DNA of 64,000 nt from the NCBI RefSeq assembly GCF_965261555.1, contig NZ_OZ253465.1, positions 166,633 through 230,632 of the forward strand. Reading direction: 5' to 3'. The DNA comes from Candidatus Palauibacter sp. (GTDB lineage Bacteria > Gemmatimonadota > Gemmatimonadetes > Palauibacterales > Palauibacteraceae). Of the stretch, positions 2,231-22,697 are shown piece after piece. The notes beneath the pieces are model-generated. The model was not told the origin of the DNA, made no database searches, and saw nothing but the letters and a program-made list of their open reading frames with translations. The first letter of the stretch is position 1. Every line of letters begins with the position of its first letter. The translations under genes and the position numbers were made by a program.

Positions 2231-2329
2231 GCCCTTATTTTACGCCGCGGCGCAACGCACTGTCATCGCGACGCGAGAGCGCACCCGAACTGGCGGACCG
2301 CACAGCCTCACGCGGAGTCGAGGAAGAAC

Positions 2330-3148
2330 GTGACAGGGAAGAACGCAGCCCGGGCGACGGCCCTCACGATCGCGGGAAGCGATTCGGGGGGCGGCGCCGG
2401 CATCCAGGCCGACCTCAAGACCTTCCACGCATTCGGCGTGTTCGGAACGAGTGCGGTCACCGCCGTGACCGCGCAGAACACGCTCGGGGTCCAGGCGGTG
2501 CAGGCGCTCGACCCGTCGATCGTGCGGCGCCAGGTTGAATCGGTGCGGGCGGATCTGCCGCCGGGGGCCGCGAAGACGGGGATGCTCGCCCACGAGGACA
2601 TCGTGCGGGCCGTCGTCGCGGGGCTGCATGGTTTTGAAGCACCGCTGGTCGTCGATCCCGTGATGGTGGCGACGAGCGGCGACCGGCTGCTCGACCCGGC
2701 CGCCGTCGCCGCCATCGTCGAGGAACTACTGCCTCTCGCCGCCCTCGTCACGCCGAACCTGCCGGAGGCCGAGATCCTGGCCGGACGGACCGTGAGCACA
2801 GAAGCCGACATGTCCGCGGCCGCTAGCGCCATCCTCGCGCGCGGAGCCGGGGCCGTGCTCGTGAAGGGCGGGCACCGGGAGGGCGAGGAGGTCGTCGACC
2901 TGTTCCGGGACGGGAATCGCGAGCGCGTGTGGCGGACGCCGCGCATCCGGACGACGGAAACCCACGGGACCGGTTGCACGCTCTCCGCCGCGATCACGGC
3001 CGGGCTGGCCTCGGGGCTCGACCTCGAGTCGGCGATCGAACGAGGGCTCGCCTTCACGCATGCCGCCATCGCGGCGGCGCCGGGTCTCGGCTCCGGCCGC
3101 GGTCCCCTGAATCACTGGGCCGACCCCGGAGCCGGCTCCCGCGACTGA
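2330..3148 (+). CDS. thiD: Hydroxymethylpyrimidine/phosphomethylpyrimidine kinase
   Basis: C-terminal 272 aa of ORF 1598..3148: [22 protein letters not shown]...[13 protein letters not shown]...KTGML...[10 protein letters not shown]...VKGGH...[12 protein letters not shown]. Start set to in-frame GTG 2330 after GGAG..GAGGAAG. The upstream part of the ORF overlaps the trmH-like gene on the opposite strand. Confidence 0.85.
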
Positions 3149-3151
3149 AAA

Positions 3152-5578
3152 CTATTCTCCGTACGGAACCCAGATGTTCTTGATCTGGGAGGCGTGCCGG
3201 AGAAACTCGCGTCCCTCGCCGCCGGAACCGAACCAGTCCCGCCCGTGAACGGTCTCCGTCCACGTGCGCTTCAGATTGGCGGCGGAGCGGCGCTCCACGT
3301 CGGCGGACCCCTCTTCCGTCCCGAAGTACCACATCCCATCCACCGCATCGTGGCCGGCGAGGGTGGGCCGCACTTCCTCCTCGAGGCCCGTAAGGATGTT
3401 GATGACCCCCGGAGGCACGTCCGAGGTCTCGATCACCTGTTGGAAGTCGGTCGCGGGGAGCGGCCAACGCTCCGAGGCGACGGCGACGACGGAGTTCCCG
3501 AGCGCGACCGGCGGGATCACGGTGGAGATGAAGCCCAGGAGGCCGGGTTCCGGCGGACAGACGACCGCCATCACGCCCAGCGGTTCGGGCATGGCGAGGG
3601 TCACGTTGCGGAAGGGCGTCCGGTGGACGGCACCATCCCACTTGTCCGCCCACGCCGCGTAGGTGAAGAGGCGCCCCACCGAGGCCTCGACCTCGCGCCG
3701 GGCCGCCTCCGCATCGCAGCCGGTGAGCGTGCGCAGCCGGTCCTCGAACGCTCCCCGGCGGGCGTCGAGATTCTCGCCCAGGTAGTAGAGGATCTGCGCC
3801 CGCAGGTGCGCCGTCGTCCGGGCCCAACCCGTGGCGAGCGCCGCCTCCACCGCGTTGCGCGCGTCCTTTCTGTTCCCGCGGGCCACATCCCCCGCGGCGC
3901 GTCCCCTGTGGTCGAGGACTTCGAGGCTGTAGCCGCCGTCCGGCCGGGCCTGCCGGCCACCGATGTAGAGCTTCGCCGTCCGGTCTATCGCGGGCAGCGG
4001 CGCCGCGACCGGGGCCGTCTCGCCGGTGTCTTCCCGCCCGTCGCGCACGTCTTCCCGTCCGTCGTCCTCCGCAGTCTCCGCGTGCTTCTCGGGGGTCGGC
4101 TCCTCAGGCTCGGGGCGCCGGCGGACATACTCCCGGAGCCCTTCCCGGCCGCCCTCGCGGCCGAACCCGCTCTCTCGGTAGCCGCCGAACCCGGACGCGG
4201 CGTCGAACACGTTCGTGCAGTTGATCCAGACCGTCCCGGCCTTGATCTGCGAGGCGATGTCGAGGGCGAGGTTCACGTTCTCGGTCCAGACGCTCGCGGC
4301 GAGGCCGTAGCGCGTGTTGTTCGCGAGCGCGACGGCCTCCGCGGGCGTGCGGAACGTCATCTGTACCACGACGGGACCGAAGATCTCGACCTGGGCGATC
4401 CGCGCGGCCGGCGACACGTCGGTGCAAAGCGTCGGCGGGTAGAACCAGCCGTCCTTCGGGACGCTCCAGGAGGGCTGCCAGATCGCGGCGCCCTCCTCGC
4501 GTCCTTCCTCGACGAGCGACTCGATCTTCTGCAACTGGACGGGCGCGATGATCGCGCCGATGTCGATGCCCTTGTCGAGCGGAGCCCCCATGCGGAGCGT
4601 CTCCATGCGGGCGCGCAGTCGGTCGGCGAGCGCGTCGGCGATCCCTTCGTGGGCGAGGATCCGCGAGCCGGCGCAGCACACCTGCCCCTGGTTGAACCAG
4701 ATCGCGTCGACGACGCCCTCGACGACGCTGTCGAGGTCCGCGTCGTCAAAGACGAGGAAGGGCGATTTCCCGCCGAGTTCGAGCGAGATCTTCTTGCCTG
4801 TTCCCGCCGTCGCCTCGCGGATGAGGCGCCCGACCTCCGTCGAGCCCGTGAAGGCGATCTTGTCGACGTCCGGGTGTTCGACGATCGCGGCGCCGGTGCG
4901 GCCATCGCCGGTGACGATGTTCACGACGCCCGGGGGGAGATCGACCTCGCGGCAGAGTTCCGCGAACCGGAGCGCGGTCAGGGACGTGAACTCGGCGGGC
5001 TTGAGGACGACGGTGTTCCCGGTGGCGAGGGCGGGCGCGATCTTCCACGCGAGCATGAGGAGCGGGAAGTTCCAGGGGATGATCTGGCCCGCGACGCCGA
5101 GCGGCTCGCAGTCCGCAAGTTCGGCGTCCATGAGCTGGGCCCAGCCCGCGTGGTGGTAGAAGTGCCGCGCGACGAGCGGAATGTCGATGTCGCGCGATTC
5201 GCGGATGGGCTTCCCGTTGTCGAGCGTCTCGAGCGTCGCGAAGAGCCGGGAGCGCTTCTGCAGGTGGCGGGCGAGCGCGTAGAGGTAGCGCGCCCGTCCG
5301 TGTCCCCCGAGGTCACGCCAGGCCGCCTGGACCGCCCGCGCCGCGGCCACCGCGCGGTCCACATCGCCGGGGCTGCCCTGCGCGATCTCGCCCAGCTGCT
5401 GCTCGTTGCTCGGATCGAGCGTCGCGAAGAACTCCCCGTCCGCCGGTTCGCACCAGGCGCCGCCGATGTAGTGTCCGAAGCGGGGCCCCCGTTCCGCGAT
5501 CCACGCCCGCGCCTCGTCCGCGGCCTCCGGGGCCGGACCGTACTCCATCGTCTCGAACAGTTCCGCGATCTTCGGCAT
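3152..5578 (-). CDS. Two-domain aldehyde dehydrogenase family protein (complete ALDH domain + truncated ALDH-like C-terminal domain)
   Basis: ORF 3152..5587. The N-terminal half has the ALDH motifs ELGGKSP and FNQGQVCCAGSRIL (catalytic Cys). The C-terminal ~300 aa is ALDH-like (VVCPPEPGLLGF..., GNSVVAVAS..., PPGVINILTG) but has no recognisable catalytic Cys. ATG 5578 is preferred over the TTG at 5587. Confidence 0.8.
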   Translation of the reverse strand: MPKIAELFETMEYGPAPEAADEARAWIAERGPRFGHYIGGAWCEPADGEFFATLDPSNEQQLGEIAQGSPGDVDRAVAAARAVQAAWRDLGGHGRARYLYALARHLQKRSRLFATLETLDNGKPIRESRDIDIPLVARHFYHHAGWAQLMDAELADCEPLGVAGQIIPWNFPLLMLAWKIAPALATGNTVVLKPAEFTSLTALRFAELCREVDLPPGVVNIVTGDGRTGAAIVEHPDVDKIAFTGSTEVGRLIREATAGTGKKISLELGGKSPFLVFDDADLDSVVEGVVDAIWFNQGQVCCAGSRILAHEGIADALADRLRARMETLRMGAPLDKGIDIGAIIAPVQLQKIESLVEEGREEGAAIWQPSWSVPKDGWFYPPTLCTDVSPAARIAQVEIFGPVVVQMTFRTPAEAVALANNTRYGLAASVWTENVNLALDIASQIKAGTVWINCTNVFDAASGFGGYRESGFGREGGREGLREYVRRRPEPEEPTPEKHAETAEDDGREDVRDGREDTGETAPVAAPLPAIDRTAKLYIGGRQARPDGGYSLEVLDHRGRAAGDVARGNRKDARNAVEAALATGWARTTAHLRAQILYYLGENLDARRGAFEDRLRTLTGCDAEAARREVEASVGRLFTYAAWADKWDGAVHRTPFRNVTLAMPEPLGVMAVVCPPEPGLLGFISTVIPPVALGNSVVAVASERWPLPATDFQQVIETSDVPPGVINILTGLEEEVRPTLAGHDAVDGMWYFGTEEGSADVERRSAANLKRTWTETVHGRDWFGSGGEGREFLRHASQIKNIWVPYGE

Positions 5579-5618
5579 CTCCCTCAACCCCCTCTCAACC
5601 CGACCCTCGCCCCCGGCC

Positions 5619-6662
5619 TCATCCCAGCGGATGCCGGTGGTAGGCGGAGTACCGCCCCGTCACGTGGTGCTCCAGCTGGCGTTCGATGTCCGCGAGGAGC
5701 GAACTCGCGCCGAAGCGGAACAGCGACCGGTCGAGCCATGCCCCGCCCAGTTCTTCCTTCACGAGAATCAGCCACTCCAGGGCCTGTTTCGCCTTCCCGA
5801 CTCCGCCGGCCGGCTTCAGACCCACGTGGAAGCCGGAGAGTTGCCGGTAGGCGCGGATCGCGCGCGCCATCACGAGCCCGACGGGGAGCGTCGCGTTGAC
5901 CTTCTCCTTGCCCGTCGAGGTCTTGATGAAGTCGGCTCCGGCCATCATGCACGTCCAGCTCGCGCGGGCGACGTTGCGCAGGCTCCCGAGTTCGCCCGTG
6001 GCCATGATCGTCTTCAGGTGTGCTTCGCCGCACGCCTCGCGGAAGGCGCGGACCTCGTCGTACAGCGCCTGCCAGTCGCCGGTGAGCGCGTGGCGGCGGG
6101 TGATGACGATGTCGATCTCGCGCGCCCCCGCCTCGACGGCCTCGTGGATCTCCTCGACGCGCTGGGCGAACGGCGTGAGACCGGCGGGGAAGCCGGCGGC
6201 GACCGCGCACACCGGGATGTCGTCGCCGGCGAGCGCTTCCACGACGGCCGGAACCATCGTCGGATACACGCAGACGGAGGCCACGCGCAGGCCGAGATCT
6301 TCCACGTCCAGCGCGCGGAGCAGGTCGGGACGGACGGGCTGGCGGGCCTTGGCGGCGAGGCGGGCCACGCGTCCCGGGGTGTCGTCGCCGGCGAGCGTCG
6401 TGAGGTCGACCATCGTCACGGCGCGGAGGAGCCAGGCCGCCTGCCACTCCTTCTTGACGCTGCGGCGCTTCCCGAGCGTGGCGGCGCGGCGTTCGATCGC
6501 GCTGCGGTTCGCGGCCTGATCCCGGATCAGGTCCAGGTCGAGCGGGATCCCCGCGTTTCGCGCCCGCATGGGCACCACGGCGGCGCCCCCCGCGCTGCGA
6601 ACAGGAGGGCTGGGCGACGTTGCGGGATTGGGCGAGACGCTCGGTTCCGGTGCCTTGGTCAT
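5619..6662 (-). CDS. deoC: Deoxyribose-phosphate aldolase (long form)
   Basis: ORF 5619..6749. TTLAGDDTPG, VASVCVYP, VCAVAAGFPAG, REIDIVI, LKTIMATGEL and the Schiff-base Lys context ADFIKTSTGK. Start set to ATG 6662 (MTKAPEP...). Confidence 0.8.
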   Translation of the reverse strand: MTKAPEPSVSPNPATSPSPPVRSAGGAAVVPMRARNAGIPLDLDLIRDQAANRSAIERRAATLGKRRSVKKEWQAAWLLRAVTMVDLTTLAGDDTPGRVARLAAKARQPVRPDLLRALDVEDLGLRVASVCVYPTMVPAVVEALAGDDIPVCAVAAGFPAGLTPFAQRVEEIHEAVEAGAREIDIVITRRHALTGDWQALYDEVRAFREACGEAHLKTIMATGELGSLRNVARASWTCMMAGADFIKTSTGKEKVNATLPVGLVMARAIRAYRQLSGFHVGLKPAGGVGKAKQALEWLILVKEELGGAWLDRSLFRFGASSLLADIERQLEHHVTGRYSAYHRHPLG

Positions 6663-6848
6663 GGCTTGAATATCGCGCACTCTCCTCGCACGGGCGAGCG
6701 AACGCCTCCCGCGGCCGCCATCCTCCATTATGAGGACGGCGATGTCCATGACGCGGTCTTGAGCAGATCCCCTTGCACACGGCCGGACGCTACCTTATTC
6801 CGCAGCCGGGCGCCGCTTCATTCCGCAGCGTGCGGCCCGCTACCGTGA

Positions 6849-9014
<2,166 letters not shown>

Positions 9015-9038
9015 TCGCGGAGCGGACGGCGTGGTGCG

Positions 9039-9228
9039 CTACGGCACGATGTCGTAGCGCACCACGTACGGGATGTCGAGCGCGTCCGTCTCCACGACCC
9101 AGACCTCGGTCCGGTTCGCGTAGGACACCCGCGAGGTGGCGGGAAGCCGAAACCAGCCGATACTCTCTGTAGGACGATTGGGGCGCAGAAACTCCCCCCG
9201 CGGATAGTTCGTCCTCGTGCTTGCGCTC
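9039..9228 (-). pseudogene. Relic: last ~55 codons of a 6-bladed beta-propeller paralog (no start, no N-terminal blades)
   Basis: The tail of ORF 9039..9545 reads ...GEFLRPNRPTESIGWFRLPATSRVSYANRTEVWVVETDALDIPYVVRYDIVP*. It aligns with the C-termini of the propeller genes at 12881.. (VWALH.GSLDESSIVALDIEGL*) and 20734.. (...AFGVPSVIRYDR*). It begins immediately after the stop of peptide gene P1. Confidence 0.5.
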
Positions 9229-9483
9229 CTATTCGATGATAATGAGTTCCGGTAGGCAACACCACTCGTATGCCGTAAAGCACGTCGAGCCTTGACAGTT
9301 CCCCAAGTAGACGTGCTGCATGTGCACGCACGGACCCAAGTCCTCCTCCGACTCCTCCGGGCACGCATTCCCGCTCGGCGGTCCGTCCAGCACCGCTGAA
9401 CCGATCGCCATTGGAGCAACCGCGAGGATGAAGACCGCCGCCAGCAGGGTGGCGACGCGGATGATCTGTGCGTAACACCACAT
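9229..9483 (-). CDS. Cys-rich secreted mini-protein P1 (84 aa, 6 Cys after a signal-like segment)
   Basis: Internal ATG of ORF 9229..9594, preceded by GGAGAGGAGG. Sequence: MWCYAQIIRVATLLAAVFILAVAPMAIGSAVLDGPPSGNACPEESEEDLGPCVHMQHVYLGNCQGSTCFTAYEWCCLPELIIIE. About 50% identical to P2, with identical Cys spacing. Confidence 0.65.
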   Translation of the reverse strand: MWCYAQIIRVATLLAAVFILAVAPMAIGSAVLDGPPSGNACPEESEEDLGPCVHMQHVYLGNCQGSTCFTAYEWCCLPELIIIE

Positions 9484-9545
9484 GTTCCTACCTCCTCTCC
9501 GAACTCGATAGGCCTTGGTTCCGGCCCCAGCGCAAGATTCCCCAA

Positions 9546-9573
9546 GCTTGCGCCGGTACGTACCGGCGCAAGC
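9546..9573. promoter_or_regulatory. Perfect 28-nt palindrome GCTTGCGCCGGTAC|GTACCGGCGCAAGC between the propeller gene and P1
   Basis: Read directly from the sequence. The two 14-nt arms are exact reverse complements. Function is unknown (hairpin/attenuator or dimeric-regulator operator). Confidence 0.5.
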
Positions 9574-9636
9574 GTACGGGAGTTGCGACTCCACTGTGTG
9601 CTTCTCCGTCCGAGCCCCGTCGCATCAGTTCAATCG

Positions 9637-10773
9637 TCAATCGGGATTCTCCCTGCGGAAGCTGAGCCTTGCGATCCGCCAAGGCGGGAAACGGGTGTCA
9701 GCGAGGAGGTACAGGTGCCGACCGCCACCCAGAACCCGGGAGTTCTCCGGCAACGGCACGTCCTCGTAGAGCTTGCGGCCGGTGTGCCGGTCGTAGATGT
9801 CGAGGGAGGAATGGTACGCCCCGAAAGGTCCACCGGACTTCGGGTAACCGAAACTGCCGTGCACAACGACGAGGCGGGAACCCACTACGGCGAGGTGCGA
9901 GATCGTGGTGCGCCCCCCAAGCAGGTCCGACACCTGCGTGGCGAACCCAGCTGGCGAGAAGGCGCCCGACTCGAATACGGGAACCAGTTCGAACGCCGCG
10001 GGGGGAACACCGATCTCTCCGATCGAGTCACCTGCCGTGTTCAGAATCGCCACCGGATAGCGCAGCGAAAACGCCATATAGATGGAATCGCCCGCCAAAT
10101 CGAACGAGAGGCGCGCGATCGAATTCCAATAGGGTCTCTCCGCCGGAAGGAACGGCCACATGAATGAACTCCACGTCAGTTCATCCTCTGCGAGGCGATG
10201 CAGCATTAGGGGGCGACGATAGAAGCGTGATCGTGGATCGTCCCCTCCCGATTCGCTGGCAAGCCTCATCTCGAGCAGAAGATCGTCGTCCAAGGTCTTG
10301 ACCCGTGAGGGAACTCCGGGTAGCCGCTTCGTAGTATCCGGCCGCAGGTCTCCGGTAAGCCACGTCAATCGAGCCTGGCGACCATCAACTACGGCTACTC
10401 GTCCGGACGCGGTCTCCGCCAGACCATCGATGCTCTGGAACTCGAACGGGCCCGCTCCAAATCGTCCGAAGGCCGCCTCGAGCCGCCCTTGGGCGTCGTA
10501 GCTCCGGACGCGGGGGAGCTGTCCGTCGCTCAGGAGGAAGCCACCTTCCGCACGTTCCTGAAAGATACCGGGCACGGCGATCGAATCCCGCGCACTCTCC
10601 TCGAGCGCGACAACCGTGGTATCGAACACACTGTCAAGCGCGACTCCGACCGCTGGCTGTGCGGGATCCGGCACCGCGTCGCATGCCGCGATTACCGAAA
10701 CCGTCACTATTACCGCATGGCGGGACAACCACACCCGCTGGCGGAGAGCAGTCAACAGCCTATTGAATGACAA
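9637..10773 (-). CDS. 6-bladed beta-propeller-type lipoprotein (propA)
   Basis: ORF 9637..10773 with a TTG start. Lipobox-like VSVIAAC. Blade-type motif FGRFGAGPFEFQSIDGL and repeated hydrophobic-strand/D-x-G patterns. Paralogous to 12778.., 17232.. and the C-terminal half of 20734... Start uncertain. It overlaps the P2 stop by 14 nt. Confidence 0.75.
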   Translation of the reverse strand: MSFNRLLTALRQRVWLSRHAVIVTVSVIAACDAVPDPAQPAVGVALDSVFDTTVVALEESARDSIAVPGIFQERAEGGFLLSDGQLPRVRSYDAQGRLEAAFGRFGAGPFEFQSIDGLAETASGRVAVVDGRQARLTWLTGDLRPDTTKRLPGVPSRVKTLDDDLLLEMRLASESGGDDPRSRFYRRPLMLHRLAEDELTWSSFMWPFLPAERPYWNSIARLSFDLAGDSIYMAFSLRYPVAILNTAGDSIGEIGVPPAAFELVPVFESGAFSPAGFATQVSDLLGGRTTISHLAVVGSRLVVVHGSFGYPKSGGPFGAYHSSLDIYDRHTGRKLYEDVPLPENSRVLGGGRHLYLLADTRFPPWRIARLSFRRENPD

Positions 10774-11017
10774 CGACTAGTTCCGGGAGGCAGCACCACT
10801 CTTCCGCCGTCCAGCACGACGAGCCCTCGCATTGCCCCTTGTAGTCATGCGCCAGCTCCACGCACGGGCCAAGTTCCTCTTCCCACGCCTCGACGCACGG
10901 GTCGATGCCTTCCTGTCCACCCAACGCCGCTGGACCCACGGTCGTAGATGCAACGGCGAAGATGAAGGCTACCGCTAGCACGGTGGCGATACGTGTGAGC
11001 AGTGCCAACTTGTCCAT
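10760..11017 (-). CDS. Cys-rich secreted mini-protein P2 (85 aa, 6 Cys)
   Basis: ORF 10760..11017 with ATG preceded by AAGGAGGG. Sequence: MDKLALLTRIATVLAVAFIFAVASTTVGPAALGGQEGIDPCVEAWEEELGPCVELAHDYKGQCEGSSCWTAEEWCCLPELVVVIQ. The mature part is acidic. Cys at 41, 52, 63, 68, 75 and 76, the same as in P1. Confidence 0.7.
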   Translation of the reverse strand: MDKLALLTRIATVLAVAFIFAVASTTVGPAALGGQEGIDPCVEAWEEELGPCVELAHDYKGQCEGSSCWTAEEWCCLPELVVVIQ

Positions 11018-11043
11018 GTTGTCCCTCCTTACAGATTCAGGAA

Positions 11044-11631
11044 TCAGCTGCGGATGAGGCTGGTGGCGAGAGTCCCGCGCAAAGCACCAACCTGCGCCTC
11101 GAAGCTCCAGCTACAATCCGAGGCGGCGGTTCTGGAATCGGCCATCAGTACGACTCCAGTGTGATCAACGAGAAGCTTCGTGTTCGGGAGAAGCGGGCCG
11201 AATGCGGTGTCCATGTCTTGCCTCGACGCTGCAATGAACGTCGTGCCGCGCAACGCCCGGCGCGCATCCTGAGGCACCTCGTCGCCACCAAACACCACGA
11301 CGTGACGCTTCAACGACGTATCGTCCCCAAGGGCATTCCACACGGCGACCCCGCCATCCAGGCAGGTTCGGCACCGGGCGAGGTCAACGATCCAGAGCAG
11401 GTGAGCATCCGTCGTATCCGACCTTGCGAGATCGAATGAGGACAGGAACACCGAAGTTCCGACCAGGCGATCCCGGACGCTCGACCGCTCGGCAAGGGGA
11501 CTCGTCACCTGCAGCGTCGCCGCAAGCTCGCGGTTCGACGAGGCCATGTTCCAAACCAGGATCGTGCCGCCAAGCACCAGCCCGAGCAGGGTCCAGTCCA
11601 GCACCGTCCTGGAGAATTTTCGTGCCGCCAT
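11044..11631 (-). CDS. Membrane-anchored thioredoxin-fold (TlpA/redoxin-like) protein with CxxC
   Basis: C-terminal 195 aa of ORF 11044..12579, from ATG 11631. N-terminal TM segment (TVLDWTLLGLVLGGTILVW). LLWIVDLARCRTCLDGGVAVWNAL resembles the beta1-CxxC-alpha1 of redoxins, and later PNTKLLVDHTGVVL resembles the cis-Pro/beta strand region. The fold assignment is motif-level only. Confidence 0.55.
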   Translation of the reverse strand: MAARKFSRTVLDWTLLGLVLGGTILVWNMASSNRELAATLQVTSPLAERSSVRDRLVGTSVFLSSFDLARSDTTDAHLLWIVDLARCRTCLDGGVAVWNALGDDTSLKRHVVVFGGDEVPQDARRALRGTTFIAASRQDMDTAFGPLLPNTKLLVDHTGVVLMADSRTAASDCSWSFEAQVGALRGTLATSLIRS

Positions 11632-11711
11632 GAGCGTCACTCGGCTACGATGAAAACCGGGTTTCTCGCGAACGATAAACTGGCTTCCCCGGGTGGCCGC
11701 AACCAGCAAGG

Positions 11712-12785
11712 AAACAGTATCAATTTGGCTCAAACCGTTTACTCTTGATCCAGAGTGGATACTCCGTCCGATCCGGCCGGGAGAATGGGGCGGACGTGTT
11801 CCGCGGTGAACGCCGCGAACAGCCGCTCCGGGGCCATCCGCTCCAGCTCGCGCGGCGTGCAGCCCGGCCATGTCTTTGTTCTTCGGGCCATGGTGGTCCG
11901 TCCAAGCCCCGTGCGGCGCTCCACGCGTTTCCAGATCAGGCCCGACCGGCGAAGCTCGTACACCCTGAGCACCGAGAGACCGCCGATGAACGCCTTCAGG
12001 GTCGTCGCCCCGTTCGTGCGAGCCCCGAACTGCCGGAACAGCGTGACGCGCGCGTACCCCACGGCTTCGGCCAGTTCCTGCGCGCTGCGGAACGGCCGGT
12101 CGGCGGCATGCCGCGCGGCAAGAACCAGAGCCTTCCCGAGGGCGGGAGGCAGTGAGGAGCGCTCGAGCGTGTCGGCCAGACTCCACAGGCCCCACGTCGC
12201 TCGCACGGCATCGAGGCGAGGTCGCAGATGTGTCCGCAGTTCGGCATACCAGACCAGCGACGCCGCACGCACGCGAAGCAATCGCCTGGCCAACTCGGGA
12301 TCGGGACCTGTCACCAGAACGACCGGCACCCACGGCCGCTCCCGCTCGAGCCTGACCAGGACGTCGACCTGATCGGGCCGAACCCGGCCACCACAAGCGA
12401 CGACCACCGCCTCGATCTGCTGGTCGAAGCTGGCGAACGCTCCGGTCGCGTCCGCCACGCGGGCATCCGGGCCCGCGGCTCCGCATACCTCCTGGGCTGT
12501 CTGAAGCGTGTCCGCGACCACAAGGATCATGGCGGCCTCCTGCATAGGGAACGCGGCTGTCCTCGCGCCTTCGATGCATCTCCGGCGCCTACATCTCCAT
12601 ATGCCGGGAGAGGGCGAACCGTTACGTGAGCCCGTCGACCCGCTCGCGCACCATCGTCGGAGTTCGTGTCGTTCTCTGTTCGTAACAGGCTGCATGACAA
12701 TGGCTTATGAACTTCTATGTCCGACGCGAAGAAGAAAAAGAGCTGTGGTGGTCGTTACCGGTGCACCGCTGGATCGATCACGCGC
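11712..12785. repeat. Copy 1 of a ~1.07-kb dispersed duplication (R gene + 27 nt 3' + ~255 nt 5' region)
   Basis: Collinear with 23491..24566. The sequence is identical just 3' of the stop (AAACAGTATCAATTTGGCTCAAACCGTTTA). The coding part is near-identical, the 5' region is patchily conserved, and similarity stops after the box at 12743-12778. Confidence 0.85.
11739..12530 (-). CDS. Transcription regulator R1: degenerate receiver-like N-domain + AraC-like double HTH
   Basis: Internal ATG 12530 of ORF 11739..12695, preceded by AGGAGG. 263 aa starting MILVVADTLQTAQEV.... The usual phospho-acceptor Asp position reads AVVVACGG. The C-terminus ELAEAVGYARVTLFRQFG...WKRVERRTGLGRTTMARRTKTWPGCTPRELER has the spacing of an AraC-type HTH pair. 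About 87% identical to R2. Confidence 0.7.
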   Translation of the reverse strand: MILVVADTLQTAQEVCGAAGPDARVADATGAFASFDQQIEAVVVACGGRVRPDQVDVLVRLERERPWVPVVLVTGPDPELARRLLRVRAASLVWYAELRTHLRPRLDAVRATWGLWSLADTLERSSLPPALGKALVLAARHAADRPFRSAQELAEAVGYARVTLFRQFGARTNGATTLKAFIGGLSVLRVYELRRSGLIWKRVERRTGLGRTTMARRTKTWPGCTPRELERMAPERLFAAFTAEHVRPILPAGSDGVSTLDQE

Positions 12786-14049
12786 AGCTCGCCAGGAGCT
12801 CTACATCACTCGTTAGGGCGTTCGTGCGCGACTTCATCGCCATGGGGACAAGCCGTGTGGCGATGATCCGGCGCGGGACCTCAGAGTCCTTCGATGTCGA
12901 GGGCGACGATGGAGGATTCGTCGAGGCTGCCGTGTGGAGGGCCCAGACCCTGCGCCCTCTCGCCTCCAGCAACCGTTGATCCTCCGGAAGGCGGATCGAG
13001 CCGAGGAATCGCCCGGACGATAGGAACACGTCGTGCATGGCTCCCGGGGCTCCATGTGGGCCGGCTGCTCCGGGGGGGGCGGGGCGGTCCCGCTGCACCC
13101 AGATCCGTCCGTCCACATCGACGACGATGCGGGAGATGACGGCCGGTAGCGGGGGCTCGCCGGCTTCGGCCAGGGCTTCGCCGAGGGTGCTCCGCCACGC
13201 GTCGGGCAGCTCCTCATCCAGCTCCTCCCCGCGCTCGGCAGGCGAGAGCGGGAGCGGTTCCCCCGGATGACAGAACCGCACGAGGCTCGTGCCGTCCCGG
13301 TCGAAGACCTCCAGTTCGTAACGCCCGTCCGGGTCGGAGACGACCCGGGTCTCCGCACCGACACCGAGCAGCGATCGCGGCCAGGCGGCGAGTGCCACGC
13401 CCGAGGGCACCCTCACGCGGGATCGTGCCACGGTGTCATGCGCGGCCGCGTCGGGAGACCAGCGCACGAAGGACCGCTCCTCCCAGCCATCCTCCACCGG
13501 CCCGGGGGATTCGATCCACACGCTCTGGTCCGGCTGGAGGGAGAGGAACCCGACCTCGCCGGACATGACCGCCGGCATGAGCAACGCCGGATCGACCGCC
13601 GTCACGCTGCTCGAACGCGACGCCAGGTCGAGTGAAGTCAGCCGATTCGTGCCGAGGTCCAGGACGAGGAGGGTGTTGGCATCGACCCAGGTCACCGCTG
13701 CCGGGGCCTGGACCTCGCCCGGGCCTTGGCCCCGTGTCATGACCGGCCCCAGCCACTCTCCATCGGGGTCGACCACGACGACTTCGGCGAGGCCCCAGTC
13801 CGCGATGGCCACCGATCCGTCGGGGCCTACGGCGACGTCAGCCGGAAAGATCAGTTCCTCCGTTTCCTCGGAGCCTCCGGCACGCCACACCTCACGCCAG
13901 GAAAGCTCGGCGGGCCAGGTCCCGACGCCCGTGTTCGTCACGGTCCGACCGTCGGGGTCCACGACTTCACACGCGGGGGATCCCGGCCGGCCGCAACCGG
14001 CGACCGTGGCGGCAAGGAGTGAGGTCAGTGCCCGGGATCCGAGAGTCAT
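12778..14049 (-). CDS. 6-bladed beta-propeller-type lipoprotein (propC), with a probable frameshift near the 3' end
   Basis: ORF 12778..14169 with internal ATG 14049. MTLGSRALTSLLAATVAGCG contains the lipobox VAGC. Blade motif TRGQGPGEVQAP. After ...RRVWALHT the annotated frame gives an unrelated Ser/Pro-rich tail. An alternative frame gives GSLDESSIVALDIEGL* (stop at 12881), which matches paralog C-termini. Confidence 0.7.
   Translation of the reverse strand: MTLGSRALTSLLAATVAGCGRPGSPACEVVDPDGRTVTNTGVGTWPAELSWREVWRAGGSEETEELIFPADVAVGPDGSVAIADWGLAEVVVVDPDGEWLGPVMTRGQGPGEVQAPAAVTWVDANTLLVLDLGTNRLTSLDLASRSSSVTAVDPALLMPAVMSGEVGFLSLQPDQSVWIESPGPVEDGWEERSFVRWSPDAAAHDTVARSRVRVPSGVALAAWPRSLLGVGAETRVVSDPDGRYELEVFDRDGTSLVRFCHPGEPLPLSPAERGEELDEELPDAWRSTLGEALAEAGEPPLPAVISRIVVDVDGRIWVQRDRPAPPGAAGPHGAPGAMHDVFLSSGRFLGSIRLPEDQRLLEARGRRVWALHTAASTNPPSSPSTSKDSEVPRRIIATRLVPMAMKSRTNALTSDVELLASCA
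12817..12841 (+). pseudogene. Relic of a katG 3' end (25 nt, 24/25 identical to katG 8945-8969)
   Basis: GGCGTTCGTGCGCGACTTCaTCGCC versus katG GGCGTTCGTGCGCGACTTCgTCGCC. It translates AFVRDFIA versus AFVRDFVA. Like the real katG end, it lies convergent to a propeller 3' end. Confidence 0.45.
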
Positions 14050-14081
14050 GTACTGACGCCTACCCCGCGATGGGCTCTCCG

Positions 14082-14195
14082 TCAATCGGGATTCGACTCC
14101 AGGAAGCTGGGCCTTGCGATCCGCAAGGGCGGAAAACGGCGGTCCTGGAGAACGTAGAGATACCGCCAATACGGCCTCTCCATGGGAACGAACGG
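14082..14195 (-). pseudogene. Relic: last ~35 codons of a propA-type propeller paralog
   Basis: Hand translation gives (M)ERPYWRYLYVLQDRRFPPLRIARPSFLESNPD*, compared with the propA end GGGRHLYLLADTRFPPWRIARLSFRRENPD*. The nucleotide block ~14082-14140 parallels 9637-9700. Confidence 0.5.
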
Positions 14196-14210
14196 GTAGG
14201 TGTGTAACGT

Positions 14211-14816
14211 TTGGCGGTTTCGCGGCATATACAAGATGGGAGTTTACGTCATCAAGCGGCGGAAGGAATCCATGGCGGGCGACTTGACTTGCTGACGTCC
14301 GAGCAGGAGCGGCGACTGGCCGACGAGGCGGGACGCGGCGATCGCGAGGCTCTGGAGTGCCTGTACAGGGAGTATTCCGACGAGTTGTACGACATTGCGC
14401 GTCGTCTGACCGGATCGTCGGCTGATGCGTACGATGTCGTGCACAGTATGTTCGGTCGGCTTCCCGCTGCCCTTCGGGGCTACGCCCGTCACCGCCCGCT
14501 CAGACCGTGGCTGCACGCTGTGACGGTTCGCGCGGCCCTCTCGCAGATCCGGCGGGAAAGGCGGCGTGGCGAAGTATCGATGCCCGATGATCGGGTCGAT
14601 GAGGCGTCCGTTGGAACGCCCCTCTTGGATTTCATCATGCTTGAACGTGCACTGTCTTCGCTCCCGGAGGGATACAGGTCCGTGATCGTGCTTAAGGAAT
14701 TCCAGGGCTATTCCCACCGGGAGATCGGCAAGCTGCTGGGAATATCGCGTGCCGCTTCGCGCGCGCGGCTATGCAGGGCGCGGATAGAGCTCCGTGCCAT
14801 GCTGGCCGATGAATAA
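14211..14816 (+). CDS. ECF-type RNA polymerase sigma-70 factor
   Basis: ORF 14211..14816. Region 2-like GDREALECLYREYSDELYDIARRLTGSSADAYDVVHSMF. Region 4 YRSVIVLKEFQGYSHREIGKLLGISRAASRARLCRARIELR. The TTG at 14211 is probably too far upstream, so the true start is uncertain. Confidence 0.8.
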   Translation: MAVSRHIQDGSLRHQAAEGIHGGRLDLLTSEQERRLADEAGRGDREALECLYREYSDELYDIARRLTGSSADAYDVVHSMFGRLPAALRGYARHRPLRPWLHAVTVRAALSQIRRERRRGEVSMPDDRVDEASVGTPLLDFIMLERALSSLPEGYRSVIVLKEFQGYSHREIGKLLGISRAASRARLCRARIELRAMLADE

Positions 14817-14827
14817 GGAGATGAGAG

Positions 14828-17011
14828 GTGTTTTCTGACAAGACGGGAGAGCATCCGGACGATCAGGCTCTAAACCGTTTCGCTGACGGCGAATTGAAAG
14901 GACGTGCCGCCCGCCGTGTCCGCTCACACCTTCAATCGTGCGCGGCGTGTCGCGAAGAAGTCCAGTTCATTCGTGACCTGGGGCACGCAATCCGGACGAT
15001 CCCCTCGCCGAGGCCACCGGAAGCTCTGTTCGACGAGATCTTCCGGAAGGAGCCGAAGAGTGCCACGGTTGGCCCCGCGACCGTACCGCAGCCGAGGCTC
15101 ATCGCGTTCTCGCGAAGTCTGCTTCTTGCGGCGGGGATCTGTCTGTTGGTGCTCATCGCGGCAATCGCCGCGTTGACCCTTGGGTCCGACCGGGCCATGG
15201 CCGGCTCGAGCAGATTGAGCTTCGAAGGGGAAGCGCCGGACGCGCTCACACTCCGTTACGAGACGGTCTCACCCTTCGCAGAGGAACGTGCTCTCCGGGC
15301 GCGGTTGCGCTACTGGGTTCCCGATTCGCTCCGCTTCGCGCAGACCGACCCGGGGTACCGCACAGCAGAAATCTCCCGCGAAGGATCCAACGTTTTCGCC
15401 GGCACCGTGGCCCTGCCGTCCGGTACCGTCTACGCCGTCGCCACCGTTGAAGACCTGGACGGAAATTACATCGACAGCAACTTCGGTCGGCTCTGGGAAT
15501 ACGTCGAAGCGGATCCCGGGGGCCGACCGACGTTGCAGGCGCGACGCTACCAACTGCTGGCGACCTCTGCGTTCAGCGTCTCCCGGGCCGCCGCAGTCGC
15601 GGAGGAAGCCGCCTTGCAGTTCCCCGGGCAGCCCGAGTTCCGGGTCCGGCAGTTGTTGTTCGCGCAGAGCGCAATTCCAGCCGCGTCACGCACCGCACTC
15701 CTCCGCCAGCACGCGCTTCGTCTGACGGAACTGGATGGCGCCGCCCGGGAAGGAAATCCGGGCCCCGTGGAACTCGACGCCCTCCAACGCTACGCAGCGC
15801 TCCTCGACCGGCCCGACCTGGCGAGCTACTGGTCGGACCAGCTGGTGCGTCGGTACCCGCAACACGGAGCGGCGGCCATGGCGCACCTGCAGTCGATTGT
15901 CCGTTCTCCCATGACGGCTCCGAGGAAGTTGGAGGATCTTGAGGAGAGCTGGGCGAGGACGGGGGCGCCGGCGACCGCCCAGGTCGGCTTCCGACTCTCG
16001 CTCCAGCTCGCAGATCCCGTCCTGACCAGGAGCTGGTTGGACCGCCACTCCCGGACCTCCGTGTTCCGCGACCTTAGCTACGACACTGAAATAGCCGCGG
16101 ACATGATGGGGGTGCCTGTCCTGTGGCCGATCGCCGAAGCGTGGATCCTCGATCGTCTTGACGACAGCCGCGATGAGATGGGGCCCGAGCGGCCGCTCGA
16201 TCAGTCACGTCGGAACTTCCGGGCCGAAGTGAGCCGGCACCGTGCGCGACTCAACCTCTACCTCGCCCGTCTCCGCCTCGCCCGCGGGCAGTTGGCGGAC
16301 GCGGTGGCGGCAGCAGAGCGGTCGGTCGGGGAGACGTGGAGTCCCCACATCTTTCAGGAAGCCGCCGAGATCCTCCGCGCCGCCGGGTCGGATCTCCGCG
16401 CCGGCGAGTTGCTGGCACTTTCCCGCGTGGATCCGGTGGCCCCCCTGAACTCCCGTCCGGTCTCCGACGGATCGCCGGCCCTCCCCGAGCCTTCGGAGGA
16501 GCAACTCGCGGCGGCTCGGACGACCATGTACGACCGCGTCACGGCCGCACTGCTCGAAGAGTACGTCGACCTCGAAGCACGCGTGCGATCGGCAACCGGC
16601 GAAGAGACGACGCTCCGCGAGGTGGTTGGCGACAGCCTCTTCCTGGTGGTCCAAGCCTATCGGCCAGACTTCGTGCCGGATGACGCATTGGCCCTTCTCG
16701 ACGTGAACTCCAACGAGTTACGCGCAGCCGGCGTGGGGACCCTCCTGATTGCTCAGAGGCCGGCTCCCGCTGAACCGGAACAGCCCGACTCCAGCCTGTC
16801 CAGCCCGAGGTTCCATCACGACGTGGGATACGAGGCGTGGGACAGTCTGCGCGCGTGGCGCCAGGTGCAGTACTTCGTCCTGGATCCGAGTGGCAGGCTC
16901 CGCCACCGCGGGGAGGATCTGGAGACGACTCTCCGCATTCTATTCGTGCTCTCGACGCGAACGGTCGCGTCTTCCGATGTCGCACCAGACCGAAAGGAAA
17001 CGGACACATGA
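14828..17011 (+). CDS. Anti-sigma factor (zf-HC2 N-domain, one TM segment, ~600-aa extracytoplasmic domain)
   Basis: ORF 14828..17011 with GTG start 8 nt after AAGGAG. HLQSCAACREEV is the H-x3-C-x2-C anti-sigma motif. TM segment LLLAAGICLLVLIAAIAAL. The last ~130 aa (TTLREVVGDSLFLVVQAYRPDFVPDDALALL...QYFVLDPSGRLRHRGEDLETTL) resemble a Cys-less redoxin fold, which is a weak call. Confidence 0.75.
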   Translation: MFSDKTGEHPDDQALNRFADGELKGRAARRVRSHLQSCAACREEVQFIRDLGHAIRTIPSPRPPEALFDEIFRKEPKSATVGPATVPQPRLIAFSRSLLLAAGICLLVLIAAIAALTLGSDRAMAGSSRLSFEGEAPDALTLRYETVSPFAEERALRARLRYWVPDSLRFAQTDPGYRTAEISREGSNVFAGTVALPSGTVYAVATVEDLDGNYIDSNFGRLWEYVEADPGGRPTLQARRYQLLATSAFSVSRAAAVAEEAALQFPGQPEFRVRQLLFAQSAIPAASRTALLRQHALRLTELDGAAREGNPGPVELDALQRYAALLDRPDLASYWSDQLVRRYPQHGAAAMAHLQSIVRSPMTAPRKLEDLEESWARTGAPATAQVGFRLSLQLADPVLTRSWLDRHSRTSVFRDLSYDTEIAADMMGVPVLWPIAEAWILDRLDDSRDEMGPERPLDQSRRNFRAEVSRHRARLNLYLARLRLARGQLADAVAAAERSVGETWSPHIFQEAAEILRAAGSDLRAGELLALSRVDPVAPLNSRPVSDGSPALPEPSEEQLAAARTTMYDRVTAALLEEYVDLEARVRSATGEETTLREVVGDSLFLVVQAYRPDFVPDDALALLDVNSNELRAAGVGTLLIAQRPAPAEPEQPDSSLSSPRFHHDVGYEAWDSLRAWRQVQYFVLDPSGRLRHRGEDLETTLRILFVLSTRTVASSDVAPDRKETDT

Positions 17012-17223
17012 CTCGAAAGCGCCTCCTGGCAGCCGCCGTGATCGGACTCACTGCCGCGATCATCCCCGTTACGACCGGGGCCAACGCAAGTCTCGGCGTT
17101 GAATTGTCGACGGCCGCATGCGCGGAAGGGGGTTGTGGAAGGTTGTCGCTGGCCGACTGCTTCTGTCCCGACATGCAATTCCCGAACCTCATGCCGCGGT
17201 GCGATGAGCCTCTCGCGGACTGA
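17008..17223 (+). CDS. Cys-rich secreted mini-protein P3 (71 aa, 5 Cys)
   Basis: Internal ATG of ORF 16837..17223, overlapping the anti-sigma stop (ATGA). Sequence: MTRKRLLAAAVIGLTAAIIPVTTGANA|SLGVELSTAACAEGGCGRLSLADCFCPDMQFPNLMPRCDEPLAD. It has a typical n-h-c signal with an AxA site. The propeller gene starts 8 nt after its stop. Confidence 0.55.
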   Translation: MTRKRLLAAAVIGLTAAIIPVTTGANASLGVELSTAACAEGGCGRLSLADCFCPDMQFPNLMPRCDEPLAD

Positions 17224-17231
17224 GCACCGGA

Positions 17232-18287
17232 TTGCGTAGGTGGACCGTCGGGGCCGTGGCCGGGGTGACGATCTGCGCACTTGCGTTGCTCGGCGGACGT
17301 GGTGGCGAGCCTCGCGCGGCCCCGGCCCCGGCAACCCTCGTTCCTGATGCGGTGTACTCGGACGATTCCCTGGGCTGGATCATAGATCTGGCACTGGCAG
17401 GTGACCGTCTCGTCGGAATCGACGCGCTGCTCGATCCAAGCGTGCACGTGTTCCACCCTCAAAGCGTGGAGCGTCTGGGATCCTACGGAAAACGTGGGGA
17501 CGGGCCGGGGGAGTTCAAGGACCCGGAGCAGATCGTGCCCGCGCCCGACTCGCCGGACGCGGTGTGGATCCTGGACGGCGTCCACCAACGCCTGACGTGG
17601 CTGTCCGTGAGCGAGATTGAAGCGGGATCCGTCGTCGCACCGGAGACGTTCCGCATGGACGGACCGAACGCCGGGTCACTGGTACGCGCCCCAAACGGCC
17701 AGTGGTTCGCGGGTGGCTGGATCACGGGGGGGCGGGTAGCTCGGTACCGGGCGGATCGGAGCTACGATCGCACGATTCTTGGTTTTCCCTCGGGGGTCGA
17801 AGCGCCGGGCATGACGCTCCTGCAGGCGTACGAAAGCCGAGTCGTCGCAAACCCTGCCGGACACCTCCTGGCGGCGGGGACGCTTCTTGGGGGTCTGCTC
17901 GACATCATCGACTACGATGGCACTCTGATCGCTCATGCCGCCGTGTCCGGCGCCTTTCAGCCGGTGTGGCGGCAAGGCCGGTCACGGGGTGGGAGGGCCG
18001 TTATGTCCCTCGGACCGGAGGCGCGCTACGGATTCACGGATCTGGTGGGTACGGAGCGCTACGTTTACGGCCTCTTCTCCGGGCGGAGCGTGGATGGGCC
18101 CGGCACTCCGTGGGCCACGACGCACGTGCAGGTCTACACATGGGATGGCAACTACGTGAAGACGCTGCACCTGGACCGAGCCGCGGAGGCCATCACCGTG
18201 GATGCCTCCGACACGTGGCTGTACGCCACGGGCCCCGACCCCACGCCGTGGGTCGGACGCTTCTTGTTGCAGGGCCACCTGAGATGA
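17232..18287 (+). CDS. 6-bladed beta-propeller-type secreted protein (propD)
   Basis: ORF 17232..18287 with a TTG start. Signal-like VGAVAGVTICALALLGG. Blade motif GKRGDGPGEFKDPEQI. Repeated D-x-x-G-x-hydrophobic strands. Start uncertain. Confidence 0.75.
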   Translation: MRRWTVGAVAGVTICALALLGGRGGEPRAAPAPATLVPDAVYSDDSLGWIIDLALAGDRLVGIDALLDPSVHVFHPQSVERLGSYGKRGDGPGEFKDPEQIVPAPDSPDAVWILDGVHQRLTWLSVSEIEAGSVVAPETFRMDGPNAGSLVRAPNGQWFAGGWITGGRVARYRADRSYDRTILGFPSGVEAPGMTLLQAYESRVVANPAGHLLAAGTLLGGLLDIIDYDGTLIAHAAVSGAFQPVWRQGRSRGGRAVMSLGPEARYGFTDLVGTERYVYGLFSGRSVDGPGTPWATTHVQVYTWDGNYVKTLHLDRAAEAITVDASDTWLYATGPDPTPWVGRFLLQGHLR

Positions 18288-18583: not shown

Positions 18584-18719
18584 AACATCCGCAGGCCATC
18601 TCCCCGACGCTCGTGTTCCCAACGTCCCGGCCCTCGGAGTCCGTGACTTCATACGCCGGCTTCGGGACGATGAGCGCGCCGTCAACCGATGCAGGCGCCG
18701 CCGGACGACCCTCGCGGAG

Positions 18720-20424: not shown

Positions 20425-20439
20425 TCGCTGGCCTGTCTT

Positions 20440-20725: not shown

Positions 20726-20733
20726 AACTTAAG

Positions 20734-22593: not shown

Positions 22594-22697
22594 TTGGTTG
22601 CGGAAAGAAGCTCTTGCCCGGCGAACACAGTGGCGCTTCGGCTGCGCTGCGAGAAAGCAGCACAGCCGAAGCAAGGTGCGCGAATACGGCGGTCAGA

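Follow-up and report, generated by a model that had tools for sequence, protein, structure and literature searches.

Do two short cysteine-rich reading frames in a GC-rich bacterial genome encode real peptides, and if so, in what kind of system do these peptides work? The question is raised by P1 and P2, two small open reading frames (ORFs) within a 64,000-nt stretch of Candidatus Palauibacter sp. (Gemmatimonadota; contig NZ_OZ253465.1, positions 166,633 to 230,632), which was analysed as a whole and is called the window below. An earlier reading of this stretch, the original prediction, had described P1 and P2 as paralogous six-Cys peptides with a motif not recognised from any named family, had taken them for real coding genes under selection, had suggested either three disulfides (a knottin-like mini-protein) or a metal/redox site, had mentioned a neighbouring thioredoxin (Trx) protein and a propeller, and had proposed homologue searches and a codon-based comparison of the two copies as checks. 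Here we find that P1 and P2 are real genes and that P2 lies between the genes of a CxxC protein and a beta-propeller, with which it appears to form a conserved, previously undescribed envelope module.

The two peptides are encoded on the minus strand (Table 1) and were aligned by BLASTP without gaps at 41/79 identities (E 5e-30); an ungapped count over the full length gave 42 identical residues out of 84. The six Cys residues fall at positions 41, 52, 63, 68, 75 and 76 in both, which bears out their description as paralogues with identical Cys spacing, and P1 has one extra Cys at position 3, within the n-region of the predicted signal. The shared blocks (S/W)EE(D/E)LGPCV and TA(Y/E)EWCCLPEL, the aliphatic C-terminal tails of the pair (IIIE and VVVIQ) and the acidic mature parts (past residue 30, nine Asp and Glu with no Lys or Arg in P1, twelve with one in P2) were all present on recount. 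When either peptide was searched against the whole window by tblastn, the sole match was the other copy (E 5e-27), so that the window contains no third copy, and its ORF list has no larger ORF on the opposite strand overlapping P1 or P2. The mechanically called P1 frame reaches further upstream, to a GTG at 9594. As a GGAGG box lies 8 nt upstream of the ATG at 9483 and translation from this codon agrees with the N-terminus of the family, the ATG is the likely start. P2 is preceded by an AGGAGG box 7 nt upstream of its start codon.

The GC content of P1 by codon position is 0.58/0.46/0.78, and the GC content at third codon positions (GC3) is of the coding type in both P1 and P2. The two copies differ at 30, 21 and 35 first, second and third codon positions, respectively, and the ratio of nonsynonymous to synonymous substitution rates (dN/dS, Nei-Gojobori) is 0.58 overall and 0.36 in the Cys core (residues 41-81). 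The codon-based comparison proposed earlier thus yielded a third-position and synonymous bias in the expected direction, yet a weak one, as for old paralogues. Between P2 and its orthologues, dN/dS is 0.23-0.27 (0.23 against the Palauibacter orthologue in locus L002, and 0.26 against both L016 and L010; loci fetched for comparison carry L numbers). These values are comparable to those of the neighbouring genes, which over all genome pairs compared range from 0.19 to 0.35 for the Trx-fold gene and from 0.16 to 0.29 for the propeller gene (0.30 and 0.21, respectively, beside the P2 orthologue comparison). A GC-rich window yields many spurious ORFs, and P1 and P2 might be chance or shadow frames rather than genes. 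This explanation is hardly credible and counts as already refuted by the Shine-Dalgarno boxes on both frames, the purifying selection, the conserved synteny and the unchanging Cys framework of homologues from independent genomes and metagenomes. As had been claimed, the two frames are real genes under selection.

One pair of close Palauibacter genomes is exceptional. Between L010 (5974-6228) and L014 (1992-2243), the peptides are 72% identical with a dN/dS of 1.17, whereas the Trx-fold and propeller genes beside them share 92-94% identity, with a dN/dS of 0.23-0.27. Because the L014 propeller gene is split by a frameshift, relaxed constraint equally explains the high ratio; decay, relaxed constraint or an assembly error may fit as well as positive selection. 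We considered diversifying selection of the peptide and rejected it, as it would rely on this single pair, which is confounded by the frameshifted propeller.

With a six-sequence profile, HMMER was run exhaustively over 1.84 billion representative proteins and found 17 family clusters at E below 1e-3. A word-index search with P2 returned four homologues of 69-95% identity, one of which is named Candidatus Palauibacter sp.; the same search with P1 returned nothing besides P1 itself, which matches the hidden Markov model (HMM) of the family at E 1.9e-30. DNA was scanned with the degenerate core C-x-G-x2-C-[YWF]-[ST]-x2-E-x-C-C-L, and about two thirds of the matches were due to chance and were removed with the family HMM. 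Among 185,579 species genomes, the true matches came from three Palauibacter genomes and two other Gemmatimonadota metagenome-assembled genomes. The same scan added six further loci from JGI metagenomes, and viral contigs gave one chance match and no family member. The homologue search proposed with the original prediction thus produced 17 clusters and six JGI loci with the same Cys pattern, and all organism-named members found are from Gemmatimonadota (Palauibacter and relatives).

In an alignment of 22 sequences, M1, the six Cys residues and E73 are invariant. More distant peptides were reached via homologues of the neighbouring CxxC protein in L075, L076, L078 and L082; in these, E73 is replaced by Gln and an aromatic residue by Asn, with the six Cys and the C-x4-C-x6-CC spacing kept. 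When 30 sequences are compared, nothing but the start Met and the six Cys is invariant, the C-x4-C-x6-CC spacing being fixed, and the Cys residues are retained in all 30 members down to about 30% identity. The proposed conservation of the Cys framework therefore extends to the whole family, but the EWCCLPEL block and the aliphatic tail, present as described in P1 and P2, are features of their lineage and do not define the family. A His following the second Cys is frequently conserved, although His57 is not invariant, and none of the Trp or Tyr positions is invariant among the 30 sequences. Up to E 1, neither P1 nor P2 matched a Pfam or NCBIfam family, the family profile had no meaningful match in the PDB (best E 2.6), and by these profile searches the peptides match none of the named Cys-rich families including knottins, in agreement with the original prediction. 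A literature search, judged by titles and abstracts, found no relevant paper on the six-Cys family or on Cys-rich peptides of Gemmatimonadota. Judged by sequence comparison, the six-Cys peptides are a previously unannotated family from marine Gemmatimonadota.

The N-terminus of the peptides contains a nearly invariant Arg9 and a hydrophobic segment, followed at alignment position 34/35 by a recurrent [AVLT]-x-[AGS] | Q/S/A/E site with small residues at -1 and -3 and a conserved Gln. In the AlphaFold2 model of P2, based on the 22-sequence alignment, residues 3-26 form a helix with a predicted local distance difference test score (pLDDT) of about 90, whereas the whole Cys-rich part has a pLDDT below 50 and no Cys connectivity of a knottin or other kind can be read from it. 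The N-terminus is thus probably a Sec-type signal, which would be either cleaved or retained as a membrane anchor. The predicted mature peptides have about 50 residues and a net charge of -2 to -13. A PEP-CTERM-like reading of the C-terminal LPE, aliphatic and basic tail was rejected, as the hydrophobic run is just 3-6 residues long and several members lack the tail.

The genes for the Trx-fold protein, the peptide and the propeller occur together in all 14 loci sampled (the window, L002, L010, L014, L016, L019, L042, L062, L066, L075, L076, L078, L081 and L082). In two of these loci one partner is damaged: a fragment is all that was detected of the Trx-fold gene in L019, and the propeller gene is frameshifted in L014. 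The trio is retained where the partner proteins share as little as 29-36% identity. The gene order is peptide-propeller-Trx in L062 and L066 instead of Trx-peptide-propeller, and the slot of P2 between the Trx-fold and propeller genes is kept in L002, L010, L014, L016 and L042. The peptide gene adjoins the propeller gene in every locus sampled, and also in the short or partial loci L007, L008 and L036. The two genes overlap by 14 nt in the window, 4 nt in L075, 19 nt in L076 and 22 nt in L078, which is consistent with coupled translation. Between genomes, peptide identities of 78, 65 and 54% are matched by propeller identities of 75, 67 and 56%, and this nearly equal divergence fits a stable partnership. 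Copy numbers vary, with one peptide and three propellers in L002 and two peptides and two intact propellers in the window. These results suggest that the three genes form a conserved envelope module not described before.

The CxxC protein encoded upstream of P2 had no Pfam or NCBIfam match at E up to 1 and no PDB match by sequence or profile. We found 63 homologues, none of which has a Pfam domain and only two of which carry a name from their source, in both cases "hypothetical protein". Among 36 homologues, C87, C90, C173, W175 and F177 are invariant, while the motif itself varies from CRTC in the window to CPSC, CQTC, CPAC, CTRC and CFGC in relatives. The AlphaFold2 model (pLDDT 86.9) consists of an N-terminal helix of residues 2-56 and an alpha/beta domain, in which C87 and C90 are positioned right after the strand of residues 76-83. 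Foldseek matched the model to ResA, DsbE, TlpA, StoA, the C-terminal domain of DipZ and peroxiredoxins (E 2e-5 to 4e-4) with target-normalised template modelling scores of up to 0.62. At the level of fold, the model assigns the protein to the ResA/TlpA-type thioredoxins, as the earlier mention of a neighbouring Trx protein implied, and its long N-terminal helix is consistent with an inner-membrane anchor. The invariant columns near the C-terminus also read as a C-x-W-x-F motif (residues 173-177).

The product of the propeller A gene reaches no Pfam or NCBIfam model, Pfam NHL included. As a single sequence it matched the NHL domains of Thin and TRIM71 in the PDB (E 3e-9), and a nine-sequence profile reached TRIM71, Thin and TRIM2/3 (E 1e-20 to 3e-13), matching in as many as four stretches, which substantiates the propeller mentioned in the original prediction. 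The gene starts with a TTG inside the 3′ end of P2 and has no Shine-Dalgarno box of its own. A lipobox at the end of the signal peptide (IAAC in the window; IVAC, VTAC, VAGC, VASC, LAGC, VVAC and LGGC in homologues) predicts that propeller A is a lipoprotein. The lipobox Cys is invariant among the homologues and is usually the sole Cys of the protein; no other Cys and no His is invariant. A role as a PAL-like Zn lyase is unlikely for the propeller, given the lack of an invariant His. Electrostatic complementarity between the peptides and the propellers was not seen, as both are acidic, and a search of plasmids found no propeller homologue.

How is this cassette placed in the Palauibacter genome? 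The minus-strand order in the window is propeller remnant, propeller B, regulator, CxxC protein, P2, propeller A, hairpin and P1, and katG on the plus strand converges on the P1 end (Table 1). The order in L002 is regulator-Trx-peptide-propA-propA′-propB-katG. P1 and P2 are paralogues, as proposed, but they are not equivalent: P2 is the syntenic member, whereas no orthologue of P1, the extra copy, turned up in the databases searched. The nearest relatives of P1 are the P2 group at about 50% identity, and P1 thus appears to be an extra paralogue downstream of the propeller, at the distal end of the cassette, so far in this genome only.

Table 1. Positions of the features of the six-Cys peptide locus within the window
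Feature	Position	Strand	Description
P1	9229..9483	minus	84-amino-acid precursor of a predicted six-Cys mini-protein; ORF and family match
Hairpin	9546..9573	minus	perfect 12-bp stem and 4-nt loop, between the propeller A gene and P1
Propeller A	9637..10773	minus	378 amino acids; predicted NHL-repeat beta-propeller lipoprotein; PDB profile match and lipobox
P2	10760..11017	minus	85-amino-acid precursor of a predicted six-Cys mini-protein; resident syntenic member of the cassette
CxxC protein	11044..11631	minus	195 amino acids; motif C87-R-T-C90 and third invariant Cys at 173
Regulator	11739..12530	minus	putative transcription regulator; 263 amino acids from the ATG at 12530; first gene of the cassette in Palauibacter genomes
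Propeller B	12778..14049	minus	second, divergent NHL-like propeller with a lipoprotein-like N-terminus
Propeller A′ remnant	14082..14165	minus	what is left of the C-terminal end of a propeller A-type gene; lies upstream of propeller B

The product of the gene heading the cassette is predicted to act as a regulator, having a receiver-like N-terminal half and a weak helix-turn-helix in the C-terminal half (weak TetR_N and HTH_18 matches). In L002 and L016, its counterparts, 71-72% identical, are likewise encoded upstream of the Trx-fold gene. A second copy in the window (23518-24309, minus strand) is 87% identical at the protein level and keeps the place of the single L002 copy beside the purine nucleoside phosphorylase gene. 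Propeller B, with weak NHL, DUF5128 and ScyF-NHL matches, is part of the same locus in relatives and shares 74% identity with the third of the L002 propellers. The A′ remnant is an 86-nt direct repeat with 77% identity to the 3′ end of the propeller A gene; it is matched by tblastn with residues 352-378 of propeller A, and the A′ gene is intact in L002. Next to propeller B, at 12817-12841, lies a 25-nt remnant of the katG 3′ end (96% identical), and the block from the regulator through the Trx-fold gene, P2 and propeller A to P1 (~9082-12816) sits between propeller B and katG, unlike in L002. By sequence comparison, the remnants and the displaced block are footprints of rearrangement.

From ~9000 to 24400, the genes of the window have a GC3 of 0.68-0.82 against 0.91-0.95 in the flanking katG, purine nucleoside phosphorylase and dnaK genes, and the local GC content falls as low as 0.62-0.64, which suggests that the stretch from katG to the nucleoside phosphorylase gene is a variable or acquired island. 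Around the L075 cassette (6001-8058) lie genes for two phage-type integrases, an IS110 transposase and a MobC/NikA-like protein (1709-12061), suggesting that the cassette is carried on an integrative mobilisable element. Because of the low-GC3 island and these flanks, the module seems to behave as accessory, movable DNA.

The stem of the hairpin between the propeller A gene and P1 appeared in both the minimum free energy and the centroid structures of the minus-strand RNA of 9484-9640. Its palindrome occurs once in the window and is absent from the 80 loci fetched, so it was rejected as a repeated element; possible roles are an attenuator, an mRNA-stabilising hairpin or a protein-binding palindrome. 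Another strong hairpin, an inverted repeat with 17-nt arms at 9030-9066 between the converging ends of katG and P1, is kept in L002 and is likely a bidirectional terminator. Rfam and tRNA scans found nothing in the region.

What, then, might the three products do together? We give an even chance to a scheme in which an exported six-Cys peptide is processed by the Trx-fold partner of its cassette and binds the propeller lipoprotein. The peptide would be inserted, or exported, through Sec by its N-terminal hydrophobic segment, and its cleavage would probably fall at the conserved [AVLT]-x-[AGS] | Q site. On the periplasmic side, the Trx-fold protein would form or shuffle the disulfides of the six Cys, in the simplest case three, and the folded mini-protein would then work with the co-translated propeller lipoprotein, most likely as a bound subunit or ligand, the propeller being a binding platform and not a catalyst. 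Within this scheme we infer the export, the cleavage site, the number of disulfides, the redox direction, the propeller binding and the biological output. A further gene of the window (20734-22674, minus strand) encodes a 646-amino-acid protein in which a membrane anchor and a DsbA-type thioredoxin domain (PF13462, E 1e-16; CPFC) are joined to an NHL/DUF5128-like propeller, and this fusion provides Rosetta-stone support for the partnership of Trx and propeller. It is directly preceded by a Cys-rich small ORF (22698-23006, minus strand) of 102 amino acids with a strong Shine-Dalgarno box and a hydrophobic N-terminus, past which ten of its eleven Cys residues lie; its 90%-identity cluster has no other member.

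Several observations weigh against the scheme of an exported, disulfide-bonded peptide bound by the propeller. The Cys-rich domain stays below a pLDDT of 50, and its fold and disulfides are ones that we infer. The nearest structural relatives of the CxxC protein are mostly reductases (ResA, TlpA, DsbE and StoA), and therefore the redox step could instead keep the Cys residues reduced. The copy numbers of peptides and propellers are unequal in L002 and in the window. The rearranged low-GC3 island and the mobile flanks of L075 also seem more typical of competition or defence modules than of housekeeping complexes.

This last point leads to a rather unlikely but substantial alternative, a bacteriocin-like module in which the peptide is an antimicrobial or antagonist exported by Sec and stabilised by disulfides, the Trx-fold protein is its dedicated disulfide-forming accessory and the propeller lipoproteins are immunity proteins that bind it at the membrane of the producer. 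The tight overlap of the peptide and lipoprotein genes resembles toxin-immunity pairs, and the extra "orphan" propellers of L002, the extra peptide copy P1, the variable, low-GC3, rearranged island with its gene remnants and the integrases, IS110 and MobC around the L075 cassette fit such a module as well. The L042 cassette, moreover, lies beside an ABC exporter and four further Cys-rich signal-bearing peptides; the exporter is near this locus only, and no peptidase domain was detected in it. However, the conserved cassette lacks a double-glycine leader, a C39 protease/ABC exporter and an outer-membrane export function, and Sec alone would strand the peptide in the periplasm of a diderm cell. 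The mature peptides are anionic (-2 to -13), unlike most membrane-active bacteriocins. The close species pair with a peptide dN/dS of 1.17 against 0.23-0.27 in the neighbours would speak for such a module, but it is the pair with the frameshifted L014 propeller, for which relaxed constraint is an equal explanation, and most orthologue pairs are under ordinary purifying selection at the rate of their partners.

If the redox step runs in the opposite direction, the six Cys would be kept reduced by a TlpA/ResA-like reductase, and the peptide, with the propeller to dock on, would bind a metal such as copper or zinc or serve as a thiol buffer or sensor. In structure, the CxxC protein is indeed best matched by enzymes of reductive pathways (ResA, TlpA, DsbE, StoA and the DipZ C-terminal domain), and TlpA reduces ScoI and CoxB ahead of their metallation. 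The peptides, besides being acidic and rich in Cys, often conserve a His past the second Cys, and the cassette adjoins katG in Palauibacter. Nevertheless, we consider this explanation distinctly unlikely: only the Cys residues are invariant and His57 is not, the katG adjacency is missing in other lineages, no CcdA/DsbD-type electron donor is found in the cassette or in the flanking stretches read, and the fused paralogous module in the window has a DsbA-type, that is, oxidase-type domain. A very unlikely explanation is that P1 and P2 are precursors of a peptide made by the ribosome and modified after translation (RiPP), with an N-terminal leader and a propeller that installs cross-links or modifications on the Cys-rich core. 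A small precursor beside conserved partner genes and a core that AlphaFold2 leaves disordered, as is often the case for RiPP cores, agree with it, and a precedent is the gamma subunit of quinohemoprotein amine dehydrogenase (QHNDH), a cross-linked Cys-rich peptide held by a propeller. Against it, no radical SAM, LanM, YcaO, cyclodehydratase or leader protease appears among the gene tables and Pfam marks of the 14 cassettes, and the N-terminus is a hydrophobic segment, probably of Sec type, rather than a soluble cytoplasmic leader. The propeller, too, has no invariant His or Cys past the lipobox, and its closest solved relatives are of the TRIM-NHL type (TRIM71, Thin, TRIM2/3 and Brat), whose NHL domains are scaffolds that bind RNA and proteins.

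The nearest architectural analogue of the cassette is the maturation of methylamine dehydrogenase (MADH), by a resemblance in working and not by membership of a family. MADH likewise combines an exported, signal-bearing Cys-rich small subunit (MauA), a beta-propeller heavy subunit (MauB) and a dedicated CxxC Trx-fold protein (MauD) in one cluster. The propeller of the cassette is an NHL-type lipoprotein, whereas the heavy subunit of MADH is a seven-bladed soluble propeller. There are six Cys here and twelve in MADH, the cassette has neither MauE nor MauG, and its proteins show no sequence relationship to the Mau proteins (no Pfam or NCBIfam match for any of the three). A cofactor of the tryptophan tryptophylquinone or cysteine tryptophylquinone type, considered by analogy with MADH and QHNDH, was rejected, as the family has no invariant Trp or Tyr. 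The small subunit of MADH needs MauD for its disulfides (bioRxiv 10.64898/2026.03.05.709764), a precedent for a Cys-rich protein with a thioredoxin of its own.

The pairing of a TlpA/DipZ-like Trx fold with an NHL propeller also recalls NHLRC2 and SOQ1. In NHLRC2, a TlpA/DsbE/DipZ-like Trx fold and a six-bladed NHL propeller are thought to form a joint partner-binding site; its interaction partner and mechanism are not known, and its homologues have no conserved operon partner (PMC6107167). SOQ1 is membrane-anchored and works at the non-cytoplasmic face, possibly through disulfide exchange (bioRxiv 10.1101/2021.03.16.435614). In the cassette, by contrast, the two domains are separate proteins, the CxxC motif is variable (CRTC in the window) and not CC(I/V)NC, and, as compared with NHLRC2, a candidate Cys-rich client is encoded between the partners; the fused gene at 20734-22674 differs again in its DsbA-type domain with CPFC. 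The cassette could be a naturally split, client-linked version of the ancient NHLRC2/SOQ1 Trx-NHL module, whose propeller would capture the six-Cys peptide and present it to the membrane-anchored CxxC protein, though we regard this as unlikely. The CxxC protein shares a predicted N-terminal membrane anchor, the thioredoxin fold and a CxxC motif with ResA, TlpA, DsbE and StoA. It differs from them in lacking detectable sequence homology, even by profile, and any match to the Pfam thioredoxin-family models (Redoxin, AhpC-TSA and Thioredoxin_x), and in its predicted client, which is a small Cys-rich peptide and not an apocytochrome c or Sco/CoxB; the extra invariant C-x-W-x-F may be a further difference.

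Disulfide-containing bacteriocins come with dedicated thiol-disulfide oxidoreductases, such as BdbA/BdbB for sublancin and PedC for pediocin. The cassette resembles these systems in that a small, predictedly exported Cys peptide is encoded beside its own Trx-type accessory and a candidate protective partner, but its peptides are anionic, have a probable Sec-type signal and neither a double-glycine leader nor a dedicated exporter, and belong to a diderm host. The features of class II bacteriocins, namely the double-glycine leader, the ABC exporter with C39 peptidase and a cationic peptide, are all absent from the conserved cassette, and the cassette neighbourhoods contain no radical SAM gene as would be found with SCIFF, ranthipeptides or sactipeptides, the Trx-fold and propeller genes being the sole conserved partners. 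To our knowledge, an NHL propeller lipoprotein has not been described as an immunity protein. A further likeness is to the DUF5128 (PF17170) and TolB_like (PF15869) propellers of Bacteroidota, which presumably adjoin small NVEALA proteins: both families consist of lipoprotein-like six-bladed propellers in paralogous groups near signal-bearing small proteins of ~80 amino acids. Other propellers of the window and of related loci match these models (propC matches TolB_like at E 5e-16, and an L008 propeller matches DUF5128 at E 3e-7), whereas propeller A reaches no Pfam model and the peptides miss the Pfam NVEALA model. A literature search returned nothing on NVEALA, and its DUF5128, PF15869 and BF3164 results were irrelevant by title and abstract. 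By analogy, the cassette would be of a known kind, a dedicated Trx-fold accessory for a Cys-rich exported client, with a new peptide family and a new three-gene composition.

Other Cys-rich peptide genes lie nearby. At 17008-17223 on the plus strand of the window, a signal-bearing ORF of 71 amino acids with five Cys is directly upstream of a TolB_like propeller gene (17232-18287, plus strand; PF15869, E 5e-16). This module (17008-18287) follows genes for an extracytoplasmic function sigma factor and a zf-HC2 anti-sigma factor, the upstream genes being at 14211-14816 and 14828-17011. The same arrangement is present on contig L079, whose 71-amino-acid peptide belongs to the same 90%-identity cluster. 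A 383-amino-acid protein encoded at 18720-19871 (minus strand) has CarboxypepD_reg domains and a weak match to the Plug of TonB-dependent receptors without a barrel, and may be a truncated or stand-alone N-terminal part of such a receptor within the island. In the metagenomic contig L042, 8645-11290 and 11497-13137 (both minus strand) are located just upstream of the Trx-peptide-propeller cassette. The four paralogous signal-bearing peptides of this stretch belong to a different Cys-rich family (CC-x..C-x..C-x..C-x..C, 73-81 amino acids), and the stretch also holds another propeller along with the ABC exporter.

In a marine phylum that is little studied and for the most part uncultured, the locus thus defines a protein family without annotation and a small, portable envelope module of three genes; no Pfam or NCBIfam model matches any of the three cassette proteins. 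Gene callers and databases now leave such genes unnamed, and the C-x4-C-x6-CC signature together with the synteny of the cassette enables their annotation. In the module, a specific Cys-rich client is tied genetically to a Trx-fold protein and an NHL propeller, which offers a tractable bacterial system for the question of how Trx and NHL domains work together. If the peptide were a secreted antagonist, it would stand out among bacteriocins as anionic, Sec-dependent and disulfide-rich, with a propeller lipoprotein for immunity. If instead the cassette is a split version of NHLRC2/SOQ1, bacteria would reveal the substrate logic of the human and plant module, and the complex of mini-protein and propeller would be a new kind of envelope device, a sensor or an effector.

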